From assembly GCA_000182565.2 (NCBI GenBank), contig KQ257467.1: a stretch of 64,000 nucleotides of DNA; one strand, 5' to 3'. This document shows positions 4,801 to 39,629 of this stretch, one piece after another. Made by a program: the position numbers and the translations under genes. Origin of the DNA: Spizellomyces punctatus DAOM BR117 (Eukaryota). The stretch's first letter is position 1. Each line of letters begins with the position of its first letter. The notes below the pieces were generated by a model, which searched no databases, had not been told where the DNA came from, and worked only from the letters and a program-made list of their open reading frames with translations.

Positions 4801-6973
4801 CAGGCACAAGCTCAATCCCAGCAACAAGGTCAAGGTCAACCTGCTCCTCAAGGACAGGTTCAAGGAGCTGCCAATGCTGGCTACCGGACTCCAACTTCGC
4901 GTCCTGGACCTGGTATGGTTCAACAGCATGCAAAGGTATGTATCGGCTACTTTCAAGGTTGGCAAAAGAGTGCTTACATTGAGTATTGCAATCCCATAGA
5001 TGGCAACACCAGGCGTTCCCACATCAGTTACAGATGGCGCAATGTCTGGTCCCCCTGCAAAGCCGCCGACTCCGGCCCCAGTACCAGGATCAGCTGCACC
5101 GACGGCCCAAAAGTTTGCAGTCCCACAAAGCATGATGCCCTCAGCTTCGTCGGTAACGGCAATGGACGCGCAATCTGTCTTGGCCGGCTCGTCCCAGCCG
5201 CCCAGCACTGATTTGGCACTACCGACGACTGAAACGGACGATTTTGATTTAGAAAAGATGCTTGGAGAAGACTCTTTGCAGGATTGGATAAATAACTCTA
5301 GCGTCATGCCCGGCGGCGATACAGGTGATCCTTTCGATAGCCTGCAGGATTTTTTCATGGGCTCAGCCCCTGAAGGGCTGAGCCATCCTGACAGCAACAC
5401 CAACCAGTCGGGAAACGGGGTGGGGACTAGCGGCCAAGCAGAATCTTCCAGCGCCGAAGGTTCCGATGGCGCCGTCGATCGTGACGGTGCCCCGGCTAGT
5501 CTCCAAACGTCCGTAAAGGCGCAAAGTTCAGTAAGCGGGAGTAACTCGACAAGTGTCACCCGCCTGAACCAGAATATACCATTGCACGAGGGATATTTAA
5601 AGCCGCTCGCCAATCTGAGCGGGCACAACGACAAGGTGATGACATGCGCGTTTCAACCGTCTGGAACGATGATGGCATCTGCTGGGCGTGATCTAAAAGT
5701 TCTTGTCTGGCATGTGGCACCCACTGAGAATGGTGTGACCGATGGGAATAGCCTTGGCGAGCCAATGAAAATTGCGCAATTGGATGGGCACACTGCTCAG
5801 GTTACCAATGCCAGGTTTATGAGTTTGGCAAAGATTTGTGGACCAGAGGCCAAATCGATTGTCCCGGATGATATCCCAGTGTTACTGGCGACGAGCAGCG
5901 CAGACAGTACTGTTCGAGTATGGGATCTGACTCAAATCAAGGATAAAAAGAGCGAGGATGGGACTGGGGTTGCGGAATTGGTGATGACGTTTACCGGCCA
6001 CCAGCGACAATTGACGAGTGTGGATTTTTGTCCGGTGGCGGCTGCCCCTGTAGGTGGAGTGGCGGGGAATAAAAAGCTCATGATGTGGGCTGCTAGCTTG
6101 GATGCGGAAGGTAATATTTGTGTTTGGGAGGTTTGGACGGGCAAGGTTGTCAAAACTTTTGAGTTGGTATGTTGCTGTGGTCTTTTTGATGAAATTGGAA
6201 TGAATAATGCTCATTGAAAATTTTTTATCATTCAGCCAACGGCGGGGAAAGCATCAAAATATTCCGCCTACAATCCGCTGCGGTTCCGGCATAACCCAGG
6301 TCAGAACTCAAATCCCATCTTGGCAGCCGCATTCGGGACGTCCATCTACTGCGTGGAACTTCCCATGTCAGATACCGCAGGGATGGCTGGCCAACACAAA
6401 CTACATACACTCGAGACACCCCATCAAAAGAACATTATTAGCCTCGACTGGAGCGTCGATGGCAATTGGCTGGTAACAGCCTCAGAGGACAAGATTGTTC
6501 TCTGGGACGCACGAAGTAGCGGGGCCATCAATATGGGCATGGTTGTTGGGGCCGTGAAAGTCGAACCCTTCCGCCTCTTTTCGCAGATTCCGACTCAAAG
6601 CGGCAAAATCTCCAGCTGCGGCTTCATCCAAACCCCCTTATCAACTCCCACTGCCGCTTCACCTACTAGTACCAACCATACCCACCATTTATCCGACATG
6701 CCACCGTCAACACCCCGAACAAACCCTCTCACCCTGCCACCACGCGTGGTGTTTGGAGAGTACGAAACAATCTACGTATGGGACGCCCCTGGCGATGTCT
6801 CTACCGGCGGTGGTCGGGCGTGGCATGGAGGTGGTCTCAAGGTCGTTGCCCTAAAGAGCTGTCAAGCGGGTGTGGTCAGCTGCGTTGCTAGTGGACGGTG
6901 GGGAGACTTTTGTGTGCTTGCTAGCGGAAGTCAGAGCAAGGAAGCCAATTTGAAGGTTTGGAGAGTTGGATAG
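1832..6973 (+). CDS. LEUNIG-like transcriptional corepressor: LisH/LUFS domain, Q-rich middle, C-terminal WD40 repeats (multi-exon)
   Basis: ATG 1832; intron 2116-2336 creates [28 protein letters not shown]...[19 protein letters not shown] (LUFS); polyQ and QA tracts; WD40 repeats such as [55 protein letters not shown] and [28 protein letters not shown] 6971-6973. Confidence 0.88.
3266..3410 (+). repeat. CAG/CAA polyglutamine tract (coding)
   Basis: Imperfect (CAR)n run encoding QQQ..HQQQQ within the LEUNIG-like gene. Confidence 0.9.
4600..4830 (+). repeat. Gln-Ala repeat (coding)
   Basis: CAGGCACAAGCT-type units encoding [15 protein letters not shown]. Confidence 0.85.
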
Positions 6974-6999: not shown

Positions 7000-7780
7000 T
7001 TACCCATTTTTTTTTTTGCTCTACGGACTTTAGTCTGGTTGTACAAGGAGCATGGACGGAGCGAGTTATTTAGCACAATTGATGATGTGGGGGGGAACTC
7101 TGTTACCGACCTTGCCCTCTCCGAACCCTTTTATTTTCATTGATTCTTTTTTTTTTTGTCATGGACATTTTCCAAAGAAGTTGTGGTTTTTTTTCAATTA
7201 TTTTTTCAAATGTATCGGTTTATTGTTTTTGTTTTTTGTTATTGCTGGGGGTTTTGGAGTAGTAGTATTTTTTCTTTTTTTTTTGGTTTATTAAAATATC
7301 AAAAAGTTTTATTTTCTTTTTTTAAAATGTGGGTGTTTTGTGTGTTGCATCCTTTTTTTCTTTTTTTCTATTCTGTATATATTTTCTGTTTGTGGATCGT
7401 ATCTTGCATTTTTTTGTTGGTTTTCGTGATATTTCTATCTACGGGCTTCACAGAATAGGGTTTTAGATGGCGCCAGTTCAGATTATTGCAGCAGTAGGAG
7501 TGTTGAGGGGTACATTTAACAATGATACGTAAGCTTGTTTTGTTTCTGAAGGGGCGGTATGAGCAAGTGCCTTTTGTTAAAAAAGGAGTTGTGAATCAAG
7601 ATAAGGTCAAACTTTCCTTTTTTTTTGGATGAAAGTCGGTTGTCATAAAACATTGGAAGATACGGGACAAAAGCGATGGGCACTCACAAAAACAAGAAGC
7701 AAAGAAGAAAAACAGATATAATCATAAACAAATCAAAAAAAAACTGCTATGGTACAAAAAAGAAAAAGAACATTGCTTTG
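7000..7780. repeat. Low-complexity T-rich then A-rich intergenic region between convergent genes (overlapping 3' UTR/terminator zone)
   Basis: Dense poly-T runs 7130-7430 and poly-A runs 7680-7770 between stop codons at 6973 (+) and 7789 (-). Confidence 0.6.
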
Positions 7781-7788
7781 CCCCCATT

Positions 7789-10700
7789 CTACCCGACTGC
7801 ACCCAACTTGTGTGCCCCACCCGCACCCCCCAACTTGATCAAAGCACTCTCATACTCTTTTTTAAAAGGTCCAAAGCGTGCAACCAAACAATGATAATTA
7901 TGTCTCAAATGGGGTGGGATCATGGTTAATGTCAAGCAATCGGGGGACGGAAGGCGAGGTGGTGGTGGAAGAGAAGAATCAGTTGGATCAAATTGCATAG
8001 AATGACGAACCAGTTCTCCTTGAAGGACTTGAAGGTACTCTTCGGCTTTCATGACACCGAATCGTTTTTCTAGTGCTTCGCGGCCACCGGGTCCTCGGGT
8101 ATCATTTGAACCTTCTTCTTCGACGTGGGTGGTGGTGTTGGTATAGGGGTGGGTATCTTTTAGGCGTTCACGGCCTTTACGTTGTCCCATGATGATGTGT
8201 TCGAGGTGGGTGGGGTGGGAGGTACGTACTTCTTGGAGGTGTTCGCGTTCAACGCGGTCCATGATGAGAGCAAATGTTCGCATGGTGATACCGGTGGGGT
8301 TAAGGTCGTTTGAGCTGGCGTAGGACCATAAGAGTGTGCCGTGGTGGGTGTTCCATTCTCCGAGAATAAATGCGACCATGGTTCGGTCGTTTTCGAGTGG
8401 TGGTGTTGTAGAAGGGTTTTCGTGAGGGGAGGAGCCTTCGGTGCTTCCGTCGGCGCTGTTGGCTCGAGATGGACGTTTGGTTTTATGTCGACGGGGTTTG
8501 GATGCTGCAATGTATGCGCAAGCTAGGTATCGTCTCACGTGTCCTTGCTCGGTCTCGGCGGCGGGTGGGGTCGCAGAGGGTGTACTGGATGGCCATTCGG
8601 TGCGTCCGACAATGCGTTCGCAAACTTCTTCCCAGAGTTGACTTCTTTTCATTAGTTTCTCCCAACTCCCAATGTCCTCTACTTGCTCCATGTATCGAGG
8701 GGTGGCTAGTACAACCAGCTTTCCTTCGACATAAAGTCCTTTGACATTTTTGAGAATGCTGTCGACCGTTGATTTGGGATGCTGGTCAAGCAGCTCATCA
8801 GGGACGCGCCAAATGTCGAATTCAAATGGTCCATTGCCGAGACGAATGTGGGGGAGGAGGCAGGTTTTGCGGCTGGATGCAAACAGTTGTATCGGGCGCC
8901 ACTTGCCAGTTCGATGTTTATTTCCTCCTCCGCATTCGGTGCAAAAGGCGTACTTTGCCGTGCATGCTATAGAAAATATTAAAACATGATTTTAACCTCA
9001 ACGGAATGCTAGCAGGAAAAGTTCTTTTGTTTGTGGTGTGGATAAACAGAAATAAAACATACCTGGACAAATGTACTCTGTGCCAAAAGCAGGTTCAATC
9101 CACTGTCCACGGACAGACACTGTATGTTCAGAGCCATTGACTGTCGTCTTTGTCACCGGCACACCAATCTCATCACCCACTAATCGCATTCCCCCGACTC
9201 CAATATCATTTTTACAAACTTCGCAGTGGATAACGCGTTCCCTAGGATTTCGCCAGACCCTTTTACGCCTATTTTTAAGAGCAGGCTCGTCGGGCGCGGC
9301 ACCCCTTTTGGCCGCACATGGTAAACAGACGACATCAGATGCGTATGTAGCTGCTAGTTGATGTTCGCGCCCAAATATATGGGCACGGGCAATGTTCACG
9401 GAGCATTGAGTGCACAGCACTTCTTCCTCTAGGAACATACGCCTTTTGCATTGGGATGATTTCAACAATGTAGCTTTACGTGGGTATATGTGAACTGTAC
9501 GAGAGCCGGACGATGCAGACGGCGACGTCTCCGTAATGTCCTTGCTTGCAATATTGCTTGTTGGGACAGTCTCCCGCGGAGAGTGTGACTTCCCGAGGGA
9601 TGGTGTGACATGCGAATGTTTACGCACGTGAGGCGGTGACTCATCGGACCTTACCCTCCGAACGTTAATTTCTTGTGGTTCCGACTCAGCCAGGAACTCA
9701 ACAACATCCTTTCCAACAGCTGAGCCAGGACTATCGTCCATGCGAAGGGATTTCAATGTGCATTCACTCTGCTGAGAGGTTGGTGAGTGTACCAGCGGAT
9801 CATCTACATCGATCTCCGAGTTCGCGCGACTAGAGCGGTCTCCGCCTTTTGGGGAATAGTTGACATCCAACCACGACATGGCTCGTTCAATTTCGTGCAG
9901 GGGCTTTGGCGCATTACTAGCATCCCATCGACTTGTCGCTGACTGCTTCAACAAATGAAATTTTGAGTTGGAATTGGGCATCAGTCCAGGTTATATATAT
10001 GATGTTGTACAAAGCGTATTTCTTTGCAGCAGCGAGCATGTACATGTAGACACATTCGGCAAGATTGGTTACATACCTGGCCAGTGGTCCGAGGTACATC
10101 AAAGTCCATGATACACGGCGCGGATGCCACAGCTTGTGACTCCGTCGCAGCTGTTGTCACAGTGTCGTTGATGAAAGCAAGGTACTCTCCCACTTCATCC
10201 ATCACCTGCCGACAGGATGATTCAAGACCCAGTCTTTGAGGCCCGTGAAGCGTTGGATCCACAAGATTGTCCAGAACAGCTGTATCCTCTTGATCAGCAG
10301 CGTATTGAGATCCCATTGTGTCCAATACGGCGCCATTGGATGGTCGAGGTGACGAGAAGGCGGCAGGTCTATTGTAGGTGGTTTGCGGCCAATATGGTAC
10401 GGACGATGGAGTCCAGGTGCCCAAAGATTGCCATGGCGCATGATAAGGTTTGTCGAATTGAAAGTGCGGGAAGGTACTGGTGACCGTGTTACTGACAGGT
10501 GTATATGATGGTTGATGCGTTTGTTGCGATGGGTTAAATTCGGATGAATGATGCGAGTGGAGATGTGGTGGATGGCTGGACAGCGGTCGTATGGACGGAG
10601 CGTATGGCGGTGCAGTGTCCGTATCTTCAGGAAAGTAAAAACGCATAGCATGGGCAAGAAACAGAGAGAAACCAAAGAATCAGTTAGCCTTTTAACCATC

Positions 10701-11337
10701 AATGACAGAGAAAACGGATGGCTGCAAAAGGCCCTTGGTGAAATACCAACAAAAAAAAAAAAAAAAAAAAGATGAATGACTACGTACAATGCGGCGGAGG
10801 AAAGCCCCTTGGCGGTCCAGGAGACTGCCGAGCACCATCATACGATAAAGCTGACACATTTACATAGCGAAGACTGGGCGAATCTGGTCCAACAGAGTAC
10901 TGCCCGGAAGCAGAACTGCGGTCTGCCATCAGATCGTAAAGATCGGCAGAGTATACGTTGGAGGGAACAGATATGAACGGTGCCATATAGCGCATTGTAA
11001 AAGCATCTCCGTGATCATGAAGCGCAGGATTTCCAGCGATCCTACTCTGATCCACTTGAGAAACACTGCTGCTCGAGTCCACACGATGGCTTTCCGCTGA
11101 TATCTCACGATGTGTAGATTGTGTTCCTTGCGGATATACCTCGTCCCAATCTGGGCCGTACGGAACCCATTCTCCAAGCGATCCAGTCAACATGTTGGCC
11201 TCCGTTGTTGCTTCCGTCGTCGTTGCCGCGGTACTGCTCCTTCCGATGTTGTCGTCGTTGTTGAACGTCACCAAATAAGGTTGTGAATACATCGGAGGGC
11301 CCTGGCTGCACGTGTCCTCGCCTTTGAACCCAGGCAT
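7789..11337 (-). CDS. Uncharacterised multi-CxxC zinc-binding protein with GNAT-like C-terminal domain (paralog A, about 1051 aa)
   Basis: Exons 11337-10788, 10624-10077, 9942-9063 and 8966-7789 join in phase via GT..AG introns (3156 nt); motifs CTQC, CLPC, RRKR, CEVC, CPAC, FCTECGGGNKHRTGKWRPIQLF, TCLLPHIRLG; clearly paralogous to 37084-39629. Confidence 0.78.
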
Positions 11338-13555: not shown

Positions 13556-15412
13556 ATGGGAAGAACTCTCGAATGGACATCGCGCACGACAATGACAAAC
13601 TCAACACACAGTGTGAACATGCTGCAGCATGAAGCCTTGAGTGATAAACCGGGGGACGAGACTGGCTCGACAGAACCCGAAACGGGACTCGTTGTTCCCA
13701 AGGGCAACATGCGTCGTGAAGTGTCTTGTTATTCGCTCCTTTCTGCCTATCAAGCTGGCTCGAGTGGTGGAGAGGAGGAAGAAGACGAAAAGGACGCAGT
13801 GCTACCGCTTACTGAATACCCTCCTCCTCGCCTGCTTCGCACGGTGAAAAACACAAACGGTTCGCGCGCTCACTTGCAAAGTCTCTATGCGACACTGGAG
13901 GAAGTCATGGCCGTCAAGGCCCGTCTCAATCGAACGAGCACAATGGCATGGTCGGCGGACGACATTACCTCGCGGTCCAGCAGCACAGGCATGGCATCCA
14001 ACTCATCCGGTAGCACCTTGTTTGAGGATGGGGAGCATCCCGCAGTGCCGGCCAGTATGGACACCCTGTGGTCGGACGACACAAACGAAAAGAAATTAAT
14101 AAGCATATTAAACGATGAACGTTCCATCGGTTGGTCTCCTGCCGTGCACCCTCGGTTGGGACCTTTACCCAAGCCGCCTCCGCGTTCACCACTCCCCGTA
14201 TCACCCACCTCATCTCTTCCCACTCCGCCTCACAGTCCACTCTCCCGCAATCTATCGCCACCACCTCCACCTCCGGTTAGCCCTCCCACCGATTCCGACC
14301 AGGAAAACTTGGTTTTTGACTCGCGTCCAAACGTTGCAAACACAAAGGCCTTGAAAACTCTTGGAATACTCTCGTCAAAGGAAGCTGACGCGGCCAACGG
14401 AGCAGTGCAAGGCAACTCCAAGGCATTCAAAATGCTGGGCATTTCTGCTGATGATGCCATGAGCACTGCTGGTAGCCAGAGCGGCCCAAGTTCCCCTACT
14501 GGCTTTAGAGCACTTGCTCTTCGTCTGTCAAAGAACGAGGCACAAAAAGCGAGACGGGCCATATCGACGGGAACTCTCCAGTCACCCAGTGAACCAAATG
14601 CTCTTCCCGCTCTCCATACCATCACCCGTCTCTTTAGTGGCCCTTTACACAAACTCTACCCTGCGGCAGTGTTCCGACCATGGAAACGACGCCATGGTGT
14701 TTTGGCACCGGGACGGATTTACATTTTCAAATCGGACTCGATGCACGAGCGGGCGGTAGATTGTTTGCCTGTGCAGGTGGATACGGAGGTGACGACGGGA
14801 CTGGGGGGCGAGATGGACAAAAAGGGCGGATTCACCGTGCGAACTGGGTCTCGCACATGGTTTCTGGCTGTTGATCATGCGGATGTGGAAATTGGATTGG
14901 AAAGGTGGATTAAAGCGATAAAGGATGCGGTATTAAGGGAGAAGTTCAGTGTTGCTACATTACCTCCACCTCCACCCCAGTATGAGGACGTGCTGTCTGA
15001 CGAAGAAGAGCAAGACCTTCCTCAACTACCAGAAATCAGATCCATTGTACCTACCCCCGTACGCATCACATCCATCCCCACATCACCCACGTCCCCATTG
15101 TCTTCAGATTCCCAGCTGTTCCGTAGCGATTCAGGAGTGAGTACCCTGTCATACCACAAGAGACCTCCACCTCATTACCGCGGATCGATGGGTCCACCAC
15201 CACCGATGCCGCTTCCAGAGGTACCACCCGCATTCTACAGACTGTCTGTTCTCTCCTCGACATCTTCACATGCATCGTCTGGATCCCAGTTACCGGAGCA
15301 GATTGATGAAGCTATAAAGACATTGGATCACCTCTTGGAAGATGGAATACAAGCCGCTGGACGGGGTACCTTTGGAAGGGATGGGAAGCGATTGCAAAGT
15401 GTTGTAGGCTAG
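13556..15412 (+). CDS. Proline/serine-rich PH-domain protein (single exon, 618 aa)
   Basis: PH signature FSGPLHKL..RPWKRRHGVLAPGRIYIFKSD...RTWFLAVD...LERWIKAIKDAV flanked by poly-Pro tracts. Confidence 0.8.
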   Translation: MGRTLEWTSRTTMTNSTHSVNMLQHEALSDKPGDETGSTEPETGLVVPKGNMRREVSCYSLLSAYQAGSSGGEEEEDEKDAVLPLTEYPPPRLLRTVKNTNGSRAHLQSLYATLEEVMAVKARLNRTSTMAWSADDITSRSSSTGMASNSSGSTLFEDGEHPAVPASMDTLWSDDTNEKKLISILNDERSIGWSPAVHPRLGPLPKPPPRSPLPVSPTSSLPTPPHSPLSRNLSPPPPPPVSPPTDSDQENLVFDSRPNVANTKALKTLGILSSKEADAANGAVQGNSKAFKMLGISADDAMSTAGSQSGPSSPTGFRALALRLSKNEAQKARRAISTGTLQSPSEPNALPALHTITRLFSGPLHKLYPAAVFRPWKRRHGVLAPGRIYIFKSDSMHERAVDCLPVQVDTEVTTGLGGEMDKKGGFTVRTGSRTWFLAVDHADVEIGLERWIKAIKDAVLREKFSVATLPPPPPQYEDVLSDEEEQDLPQLPEIRSIVPTPVRITSIPTSPTSPLSSDSQLFRSDSGVSTLSYHKRPPPHYRGSMGPPPPMPLPEVPPAFYRLSVLSSTSSHASSGSQLPEQIDEAIKTLDHLLEDGIQAAGRGTFGRDGKRLQSVVG

Positions 15413-34117: not shown

Positions 34118-36751
<2,634 letters not shown>

Positions 36752-37083: not shown

Positions 37084-39629
37084 CTACCTCCAAACCCCTC
37101 TATACCCTCCACCTATCCCACATCCCCCAACACCCCCATTCCTCTCCCTCTCCCCCTCCCTCAAAAACTCATGCACAGAACAAACAAAACATCTAAATAA
37201 ATCCCTGGGAACATGAACCTCCCTCTCAAACAAACTTTTATCTACACCAGGGTTCATCCTCACATACTCATCCAAAGGTTTGAACCCCATTCGTTCTACA
37301 TACGATTGAACACGGAGGTGATCTCTTCTCGCGAGCATCCAGACGTGTTTGACGGGGACAGGGGCTTGGACGGTTGCAGAATCTGTTAGACATTGTCGGA
37401 GGAGGCGTTCGTGCATGCCGCGGAGGATGGGGAGGGTGGAGACGGTTGTGGTTCGGACATAACCGTTGGCGAAGAGGACGGTACCGGTGCTAATATCCCA
37501 TTCGGCGGATCCGTAGGCGACTTGGATACGAGGGGAGTCGTGATCGGGTGTAGTTGCTGTGCCGGATGGTGAGGAGGATTCAAAGGAAGGAGATGCGGAG
37601 GGAGTTGATGTTGACGATGGGGTGGTTTGGGGAGGAGGTAACCCCGGACCAGTGGAATGAGGGTTTTTGGCATTCGCTTTGATGCGTTTGATCGTTGCAC
37701 CCCTGACGCGCGATTGGGGTTTCTCAACGTACACAACAGCCAGGTACCGTCTTAATCCGCGAGTCTTTTCCACATCCTCTCTTAAAAGGCGTTCGGCCGA
37801 CCTCCACCCCTTGTTGGCCCATTCTTCCACTTTTGCGTACGATTCCAGTTGGGTGATGGCGGCTTCAATGACCTCGGGCGTGGCGTATAGCCCATAGAAT
37901 CCGTCCATGTGAACTTCGCGGGACTCGTTATACAGCGATTCGCATACGTTGGTGGGGGTCAAGTAGACTTCATAGGTAACAGGGGCGCCACCGAGACGGA
38001 CGTGGCTCAAGAGGCACGTACGGCGGTTAGATGCAAAGAGTTCGACAGGCCGGTACTTGCCCGTGCGGAATTTACCGCCGCCTCCGCACTATTCAAAGTT
38101 CCACCATCAACGTCTGCATGATCAAAGCAACTTGGTGAAAACGTACACTACTCACCTCTGTACAAAATTTGTATTTTACCCGACAAGAAGCACAGATGGG
38201 TTCCACTCGGAAATCCATAGCCTCTTCCACCATGGCTCCGTCTTCGTCCCGCACCTTTCCGCCAACACCAATAGCTTGGAGCTCTCGCTCTTCGGAAAAC
38301 TTGAACCCACCACTTCCTATCCTCCGCTTGCAAATCTCACAATCCATGCCATAATCGTCATGTAAGCGCTTGCGACGCCCGGCTAATACCATGGACGTAT
38401 CATCCACCTCCAAAGAATCTTTGCGGCCTTCACAGGATACGCACAAAATGTCGACGGCAAAATTGAGTGGAGGAACATTTTTGCTCTCGGGATGTAAAAG
38501 GAAAGTTGCAATTTCGTTTTTGCAGCGCTTGCAATGGACAGTGTGGTCAATGATCTTTTTGCGACCGCTTGTGTCGCGGGTAGATTTGTTGGGAGTGGAG
38601 GGACGGGCAGGAGCGAATTTGGCGGAGCTTCGGCGCTGTTGGGTGGATGAGTCATGTTGCGCAGACCGTTGGTCTGGTTGAGGGATGATGGAAAACGTCA
38701 AGGAATTCGGCCCTTGCGAGGTCATTGGACGGGCTGTTGGAGTTGATAACGTCGAAGGTGGCAAGTGTTGCTGGGTGTTTGTTCCAGTGTGCAGTATTTG
38801 GGATGGCAGAGGAGGTGACGGCAAATGGTATGGGGGAAGAATTGAGACATTTGGAGATGATGCGCGTACATATTGCGGGGTAGGAGGTGTCGGAAGTCCA
38901 GCCGTGTTCTCTGCCAATGGTAAAGGATTCCATTGATCCGTAAAAAAGTCTTCAATGTTCTGATATGCAGGTAACCCGGCCTGCAAGGTTTCATCATACC
39001 GGAACTCTGCCGGTAGGCCTTGTGCTGGAGAGAACTGCCCCATGTTCTCGCTGAGCGGGCGGCGAATCAAATGCCGCCGAAGAAGCAAATTCAGGAGATT
39101 GGAAAAGTTCGTCCAGAGGCATGGGAGTCTGCAGATCGTGCAAGAAATTTGTGTAATCAACAAACGAAGAGGAGATGGGGACGGGAGTAGGTTGCGCCCA
39201 TGTTGAAGGAGGAGCAGAGAATTGTACGGGAAATTGGAAATTTACAAGGTTGGTGAGGGTGACTGGAAGTTCTGCTTGCGATACTGGGGATGGATCCTTG
39301 ATCGGCGGCGGAGGTATTGGATCTACAATGTTTAGAGAAAAGAGCGGAATTTGGTTCAGTTTTCCTCTAGTGTTCCAAAATCATTTCTGGACCCAACCTG
39401 ACGAAGTTGGAGTATGGCCAGCACCACTCCCACAGACGTCCGCTTTTTGGATACTATCCCTCAATCTCAAAATTTCCAATTCCAGTTCCTTTGTTTTTCG
39501 AATTTCCTCCTGTCTCTTTCGTTCTTCTTCCAAGACTCTTAGGACGAGTTCGAGCTGCGGCCCGACTTGACGGCCCTCATGCTGATCTTCGAGGGGCTGT
39601 CGCATGAGGGAAGGAAGAAATTGGTCCAT
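37084..39629 (-). CDS. Uncharacterised multi-CxxC zinc-binding protein with GNAT-like C-terminal domain (paralog B)
   Basis: Intron 38155-38089 joins ICASCRVKYKFCTE to CGGGGKFRTGKYRPVELFASNRRTCLLSHVRLG; also CKRC, CVSC, RRKR and CEIC; C-terminal VKHVWMLARRDHLRVQSYVERMGF; 5' introns 39397-39323 and 38999-38960 are tentative. Confidence 0.78.

Follow-up and report, generated by a model that had tools for sequence, protein, structure and literature searches.

An undescribed fungal protein family that joins a predicted three-zinc module directly to a GNAT-fold domain, represented in Spizellomyces punctatus

Spt10p of Saccharomyces cerevisiae is described as pairing a sequence-specific zinc-finger DNA-binding domain with a Gcn5-like domain for which histone acetyltransferase (HAT) activity could not be demonstrated; it is presented as a regulator, not a classical enzyme, and its authors expected further proteins of this kind (PMC1807970). 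In Eco1/ESCO and MYST proteins a zinc finger lies directly N-terminal to the GNAT-fold domain, and is reported to aid activity or substrate recognition (PMC5349539). Among cysteine-rich zinc domains with several CxxC pairs, the eukaryotic zf-4CXXC_R1 domain of CDCA7 is reported to bind DNA (PMC11343032, PMC11343034), and Stc1 is described as a fungal and algal LIM-like protein (PMC2875855). Here we analyze a gene of the chytrid Spizellomyces punctatus DAOM BR117, called gene A, which lies on the minus strand of a 64,000-nucleotide stretch of contig KQ257467.1 (assembly GCA_000182565.2; this whole stretch is "the window" below).

Gene A is a member of an undescribed fungal family in which a module of about 170 residues with twelve ligand positions is joined without a linker to a GNAT-fold domain. 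The GNAT part is of a known kind; the three-zinc module and its coupling to a GNAT domain are undescribed within the databases and literature searched. The parts of the gene to which the argument refers are as follows.

7789..11337, minus strand: gene A from start to stop codon, 1052 amino acids (aa); the ortholog P0001 is 74-93% identical, depending on the region
9463..11337, minus strand: N-terminal half rich in S, P and T (aa 1-527), with no family match
8836..9438, minus strand: predicted tri-zinc module (aa 536-704), spanning intron 3 (8967-9062); ligands assigned from the conserved pattern
9259..9270, minus strand: RRKR basic cluster in the linker between C4 and C5, a candidate nuclear localization signal
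8893..8943, minus strand: family signature CTECGGGNKHRTGKWRP, made up of the third zinc knuckle and a glycine-rich basic loop, the most conserved stretch of the family
7792..8832, minus strand: GNAT-fold domain (aa 706-1052) with three disordered inserts
8284..8301, minus strand: NPTGIT, occupying the GNAT motif A position that separates strand 4 from helix 3; the modeled helix H368-390 starts here

By analogy, Spt10p would be the closest functional precedent, as both proteins combine a zinc-dependent domain with a GNAT-fold domain. The order is reversed, however (in Spt10p the GNAT domain precedes a single His2-Cys2 finger, in gene A the three-zinc module precedes the GNAT domain), and the zinc modules are unrelated, with no sequence relationship detected. 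With Eco1/ESCO and MYST proteins gene A shares the position of its zinc part, but they carry just one finger, of C2H2 or C2HC type, and conserve the acetyl-coenzyme A (acetyl-CoA) site, whereas gene A has twelve ligands and motif A is mostly degenerate in its family. Pfam scans covered the gene A exons at E<=1 and 157 family members (81 at E<=0.05 and 76 at E<=0.01). They gave no ESCO-type match (models zf-C2H2_3 and Acetyltransf_13) in either set, and no match to MYST models in the 157 members.

The putative ligands in the gene A protein are C544/547/573/576, C607/610/659/662 and C669/672/696/H700. They are set in the motifs C544xxC547, C573xxC576, C607xxC610-x3-IGVGG and C659xxC662-TAKYAF-C669TEC672-GGGNKHRTGKWRPIQLFASSRKTC696LLPH700IRLG, with RRKR at 592-595. 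A regular expression for the full pattern, five CxxC pairs plus Cx3H (the histidine ligand standing three residues after C11), matches 139 of the 189 stored family proteins, and as a sequence pattern this is far beyond chance. Each of the twelve ligand positions is either invariant or conserved to at least 90% in both a 105-row and a 103-row alignment, which on sequence grounds suffices for three predicted zinc ions. The spacer C8-C9 is always 6 residues (median 6) and C10-C11 ranges over 22-25 (median 23); the others range over 22-45 for C2-C3 (median 25), 18-100 for C4-C5 (median 38) and 20-91 for C6-C7 (median 31). A basic cluster is present in the C4-C5 linker of 131 of the 139 matching members, its K/R at least 90% conserved. 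Every position with conservation of at least 90%, invariant ones included, falls in the zinc module, save one glycine of an LGF motif. Such positions include seven basic residues (K63, R64, R142, K145, R147, R156 and R165, in the numbering of paralog B, a second family member encoded in the window), and E119 in the same numbering is the sole conserved acidic residue of the module.

An AlphaFold2 (AF2) model of the paralog B module (P0006 163-331, from the 103-row alignment) has a mean predicted local distance difference test score (pLDDT) of 85.8 and a predicted template modeling score (pTM) of 0.79. Its secondary structure follows one plan twice: a CxxC knuckle at the turn of a beta-hairpin, then a third strand, then a helix that opens with another CxxC; the modeled third unit is a shorter C2-CH that carries the GGGxKxRTGK[WY]RP loop. 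When unit 1 was aligned to unit 2 with hhalign, both CxxC knuckles came into register (P 0.01). In this model the zinc module looks like two tandem units of zinc-ribbon or treble-clef-like type plus a third C2-CH finger, a repeat that hhalign supports weakly. From the order of the ligands and the modeled secondary structure we infer three sequential sites, C1-C4, C5-C8 and C9, C10, C11 with H12.

The original prediction, made from the letters of the window, had set this cysteine region apart from RING, PHD, LIM, GATA and ZZ domains and counted ligands for three zinc ions in it. Both points hold, the number of ions being itself predicted: no Pfam family matched the gene A exons and NCBIfam gave no match; RING, PHD, GATA, ZZ, GRF and zf-4CXXC_R1 were missing from the Pfam matches of these exons and of the 157 members, as were LIM and Stc1 from those of the 157 members. 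Against PDB sequences, the zinc-only profile A3 gave as its best match bL28 (E 0.097), followed by ZPR1 (E 1.6); the core profile A1 reached E 0.65 at best, P0104 (a family member discussed below) E 0.2, and profile A2 low-complexity matches only. No solved structure was matched by fold either. Foldseek against the PDB gave a best E of 1.8 for the zinc module, with the LIM domain of LMO4 at E 3.0 and Stc1 at E 4.6, and the best match in BFVD had E 0.73. ESM Atlas yielded low-quality models (pLDDT 0.36 and 0.39), and no feature scored above 0.83, the level of a lead; Stc1 (0.78 and 0.80), LIM and GRF appeared there, all sub-threshold.

LIM domains and Stc1 do resemble the module: like it, they have CxxC knuckles in series, with few residues separating one site from the site that follows. 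A LIM or Stc1 identity was dropped, with neither a hidden Markov model (HMM) match nor structural support. The cysteine-rich domain of CDCA7 binds three zinc ions and is likewise a multi-CxxC domain, but zf-4CXXC_R1 matched none of the scanned members and was not among the fold matches, though it may still be similar. Weak matches to the EAPP C-terminal domain (Eapp_C, PF10238) occurred in 3 of the 81 members (20.3, 15.1 and 14.4 bits); this candidate was rejected, as the scores lie below the gathering score of 25 and mostly reflect a basic stretch upstream of the first knuckle. Sequence and structure searches thus found no relative of the zinc module. That alone does not make its fold new in principle: structural aligners have difficulty with small zinc domains made of several knuckles.

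The C-terminal domain is GNAT-like, as the original prediction had proposed, on the combined evidence of a modeled fold and transitive sequence homology. Its motifs in gene A are ATP (748-750), RRYLA (805-809), VAFILGEWNTHHGT and LEKRFG (959-964), so that all motifs listed at the outset (the CxxC pairs, RRKR, IGxGG, the signature, ATP, RRYLA, VA..EW..GT and LEKRFG) are present as expected. The AF2 model of the ortholog core (105-row alignment; mean pLDDT 77.9, pTM 0.78) has low confidence only in loops. It shows the mixed alpha/beta fold b1-a1-a2-b2-b3-b4-a3-b5-a4-b6-b7, as in the GNAT superfamily, with the zinc module adjoining strand 1 without a linker and the tail after LEKRFG forming the last GNAT strand plus a helix. 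The nearest structural neighbors are Gcn5 HAT domains, NatD/Naa40, other N-terminal acetyltransferases and the histone-modifying KKT23. Sequence identity to the Gcn5 HAT domains (PDB 9ynv_N, 1ygh_B and 6cw3_F) is 10-12%, and they tie within 1 Z with many generic GNATs; unlike Gcn5, the gene A domain lacks a bromodomain and is interrupted by three long disordered inserts.

Two of the 157 family proteins have Pfam GNAT matches: P0104 with Acetyltransf_1 (E 9.8e-7, 29.5 bits against a gathering score of 20.7) and P0070 (E ~3e-3). The gene A protein itself has no Pfam acetyltransferase match at E<=1. When P0104 and P0070 were left out of an HMM of the C-terminal domain, it still retrieved them (4.9e-38 and 9.4e-38) and covered the Pfam-positive stretch, and the gene A domain is therefore homologous to a recognizable GNAT.

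The canonical motif A (Q/R-x-x-G-x-G/A), which lies at the b4-a3 junction and forms the pyrophosphate site for acetyl-CoA, occurs in 2 of the 104 aligned members and its central glycine in 16, counts that depend on the alignment. At this site gene A reads NPTGIT (central glycine kept, first and last positions deviating), the ortholog NPTGIA and paralog B STLPIL. Only the glycine of the LGF motif reaches 90% conservation in the GNAT domain; of the 104 members, 89 keep the P of ATP, 89 the W of EW, 82 the Y of RRYLA, 81 the Y after LGF, 70 the H of EHxW and 67 the E of EW. The fold is retained, but most paralogs have drifted at the usual cofactor site; gene A is among the better preserved.

The family is large. 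A search of 1.84 billion representative proteins with the core profile A1 returned 465 at E<=1e-3, of which 382 lie at E<=1e-10 and 227 at E<=1e-30; these representatives are clusters at 50% identity, and the best 150 of the 465 were inspected. The exon 4 search found four long relatives, all from chytrids and all named "hypothetical protein." Ten clusters looked up in a first spread were all chytrid, and ten in a second comprised seven chytrids, one basidiomycete (Dentipellis) and two without a name. The ten nearest BLAST neighbors of the Dentipellis protein, chosen as such, were nine basidiomycetes and one without a name; the basidiomycetes included Tulasnella, Calocera/Dacryopinax, Phakopsora, Rhodotorula, Rhodosporidiobolus and Sporobolomyces. 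The signature region, used as the query, gave 45 matches, 26 of them named: 25 chytrids, among them Batrachochytrium dendrobatidis, B. salamandrivorans, Rhizoclosmatium, Polychytrium and Gorgonomyces, and one Microbotryum. All named homologs that were looked up are thus chytrid or basidiomycete. In a FastTree phylogeny of 104 full-coverage cores (midpoint-rooted), the basidiomycetes looked up form one clade inside the chytrid paralog radiation. Judging from these sequences, the family is old and broad within fungi, with many chytrid orders plus Basidiomycota, and the term "lineage-specific" used for it at first is too narrow.

That the family is undescribed, also part of the original prediction, is borne out by names and literature. 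The homologs are mostly called hypothetical; among automatic names, P0070 is an "N-acetyltransferase domain-containing protein" and the name of P0107 begins "Zinc-ribbon domai...". No Pfam model spans the whole family, and literature searches found no paper on such a family. Three family locus tags and two UniProt accessions were absent from searchable paper texts, a search that covers main texts and not supplements, whose expression tables may list these genes. Some homologs depart from the usual form. The basidiomycete proteins P0140, P0151, P0122 and P0139 have the variant signature GGG[SG]xRxGxGKWR[CS]KELF, with one extra residue and with Cys or Ser in place of Pro. Extra domains occur in P0009 (amine oxidase), P0116 (alpha/beta hydrolase), P0061 (WD40), P0138 (DOMON/CDH-cyt) and P0071 (SNF2 N-terminus); none of these partners is found repeatedly, and the extra domains probably stem from gene models wrongly fused in draft assemblies.

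Spizellomyces punctatus has at least four paralogs with divergent N-terminal halves: gene A, SPPG_07993 (paralog B), SPPG_07003 and SPPG_08619. Paralog B, the other member in the window, is placed as follows.

37084..39043, minus strand: paralog B (SPPG_07993), 630 aa; exons 39043-38156 and 38088-37087, stop codon 37086-37084

Our model of paralog B agrees letter for letter with the annotated protein P0006/SPPG_07993, a match that also identifies the source of the window as Spizellomyces punctatus DAOM BR117. It has the same tri-zinc plus GNAT-like architecture and is about 26% identical to gene A over the core. Its sole intron (38089-38155, 67 nucleotides) splits the signature as FCTE|CGGGG, at a site different from that of the gene A intron. 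Elsewhere in the window, a run of 383 N (35948-36330) interrupts a plus-strand gene whose product matches Myb_Cef (Cef1/Cdc5-type splicing factor; E 1.5e-29). Plus-strand neighbors of gene A encode a GATA zinc finger match (246-1313, below gathering score), WD40 repeats (5000-6970) and a PH domain match (13556-15409, below gathering score), with no apparent functional link to it.

Gene A is a real, intact and expressed gene. Four long minus-strand open frames in 7789-11337 are joined by three introns into a coding sequence of 3156 nucleotides, read from 11337 to 7789 and encoding 1052 aa. The four exons of the original prediction stand, with the following limits.

10788..11337, minus strand: exon 1, aa 1-183 plus 1 nucleotide; the true start may be a downstream ATG
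10077..10624, minus strand: exon 2; junction colinear with P0001
9063..9945, minus strand: exon 3; NAGNAG acceptor, may begin at 9942
7789..8966, minus strand: exon 4; coding to 7792, stop codon 7789-7791
7731..7788, minus strand: probable 3' untranslated region, from the RNA read pile and its fall below 7731

All three introns (163, 131 and 96 nucleotides) have GT..AG ends. Their donors read GTACGT, GTATGT and GTATGT, and upstream of the acceptors stand branch-like CTAAC/ACTGAT boxes. Intron 1 contains, at 10740-10760, a homopolymer of about 20 A as read on the plus strand (T in the coding direction). The junctions rest on three observations: the ortholog P0001, a predicted protein, is colinear across all three of them; junction 3 rebuilds the invariant C7xxC8 knuckle, which is contiguous in 139 family proteins; and paralog B has its intron elsewhere. 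The acceptor of intron 2 is a NAGNAG (AAG|CAG, 9943-9948) in which either site may be usable, and the P0001 annotation is one residue shorter there, so one residue of the gene A protein is ambiguous. The start codon is placed provisionally, since P0001 is annotated from a residue that corresponds to M49.

At the other end, the protein had been thought to finish at LEKRFG. It extends 88 residues further, and this tail is conserved in P0002; because it supplies the last strand and helix of the modeled domain, it speaks for an exon 4 that continues as far as the stop at 7789. With exon 4 as the query the best match was P0001 of Spizellomyces sp. "palustris" (86% identity over 99% of the length). 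The N-terminal half (S 14%, P 10%, T 8%) is presumed from its composition to be disordered, and it diverges faster than the core.

One RNA run, labeled as the same species, contributed 126 reads, none with a joint. At 7731-7861 the depth is 26.2 (first mate on the minus strand), whereas below 7731 it is 1.15; towards the body of gene A it drops to 5.9 and then to 0.4. On the simplest reading this is a 3'-tag pile that ends gene A about 60 nucleotides past the stop codon, a reading that depends on the strand convention of the library. Contigs from three further runs (X4-X6) are identical to the window and unspliced through the introns, and are thus DNA-like. One X5 contig lacks one base at 9961 in intron 2, possibly a strain or assembly difference and without coding consequence.

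The reading we prefer, about evenly balanced between right and wrong in our judgement, is that the zinc module binds a polyanion, likely nucleic acid or chromatin, and is hard-wired to a HAT-like GNAT domain that acts as a regulator or effector. No part of the protein is under stronger constraint than the module, which has seven conserved basic residues and hence probably binds a polyanionic partner, which would most likely be nucleic acid or chromatin. The conserved RKR cluster of the linker would drive nuclear import. Since the GNAT fold is kept but the canonical acetyl-CoA motif is lost in most members, we propose that this domain would be a weak or specialized acyl-CoA-binding, regulatory or effector domain, not a robust enzyme. 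The variable, disordered N-terminal half would provide paralog-specific interactions, and several paralogs per genome, with divergent N-terminal halves, would be typical of regulator families. The nuclear regulator put forward in the original prediction is plausible on this view.

Several points weigh against this proposal. Nucleic-acid binding, nuclear localization, zinc binding and loss of catalysis are all inferred from sequence and models, the hhalign evidence for the internal repeat is weak, and the ligands may be cross-braced instead of forming sequential sites. The conserved basic loop could contact the phosphates of CoA or an acidic protein instead. Motif A is loosely conserved even in proven GNATs, in which CoA is bound via backbone amides, and gene A, with the central glycine retained in NPTGIT, could on its sequence be a working acetyltransferase. 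The zinc modules of Eco1 and MYST, moreover, are reported to serve substrate recognition and not DNA binding (PMC5349539).

It is accordingly possible, if clearly less probable than the reading just given, that gene A encodes a working protein acetyltransferase, acting on histones, N termini or other lysines, with the tri-zinc module packed on it for substrate recognition or stability, in the manner of the zinc fingers of Eco1/ESCO and MYST enzymes. Its nearest folds are Gcn5 HAT domains, NatD/Naa40 and other N-terminal acetyltransferases, and KKT23. P0104 and P0070 have a textbook motif A (QSQGIA) and motif B (NFAMQRFSEKYGF); gene A retains G-x-T at motif A, where the modeled helix begins, and its zinc module passes into GNAT strand 1 without a linker in a two-domain model with pTM 0.78. 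The Eco1 zinc finger is reported to raise Eco1 activity (PMC5349539). Set against this are the canonical motif A in only 2 of the 104 members and its loss in paralog B, a single glycine at or above 90% in the GNAT domain, candidate catalytic residues kept in only part of the family (E in 67 and H in 70 of 104), and the missing Pfam acetyltransferase match of gene A at E<=1. A GNAT-fold enzyme of other chemistry, such as ATE1- or Fem-like aminoacyl-tRNA transfer, synthesis of N-acyl amino acids or of the acyl-homoserine lactone (AHL) type, or small-molecule acylation, is unlikely. ATE1 has an N-terminal cysteine-rich metal-binding region, and human ATE1 is in the Foldseek list at E 0.07, but many ordinary N-acetyltransferases outrank rows of the ATE1 type, the 157 members gave no Pfam match to ATE_N, ATE_C or an autoinducer synthase, and a long disordered N-terminal half with several paralogs would be unusual for a metabolic enzyme.

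Very improbable, finally, is that the four exons were wrongly annotated or belong to a decaying pseudogene, with the motifs brought together by wrong splicing. No read crosses any intron, and the ortholog P0001 is itself only predicted. The frame, however, is open over 1052 codons with canonical splice signals, and identity to the sister species is 92-93% in the core (zinc module 93%, GNAT region 92%) versus 74-82% in the flanks, with 79-82% in the N-terminal half. The restored CxxC is invariant in the family, paralog B arrives at the same signature with its intron elsewhere, the AF2 model is confident across the junction, and RNA reads pile up beside the stop codon.

Chytrids are poorly annotated and their regulators largely unknown, and the family is large, with members in B. 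dendrobatidis, B. salamandrivorans and rust and yeast basidiomycetes. The zinc module is predicted confidently yet matches nothing solved, which makes it a good target for structure and binding studies. Should it be a new sequence-specific nucleic-acid-binding domain, and the family a hitherto unrecognized, chytrid-expanded set of regulators of transcription or chromatin with a GNAT-derived acyl-CoA sensor or effector, a stronger version that we regard as doubtful, early-diverging fungi would have a direct link from metabolic state to the control of their genes. If, as in the preferred reading, DNA or chromatin is what the module binds, Spt10p would gain a counterpart, the family being a second case of a binding domain fixed to a HAT-like one. 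Spizellomyces punctatus is transformable, and in that case the family would offer a handle on gene regulation in a chytrid model.

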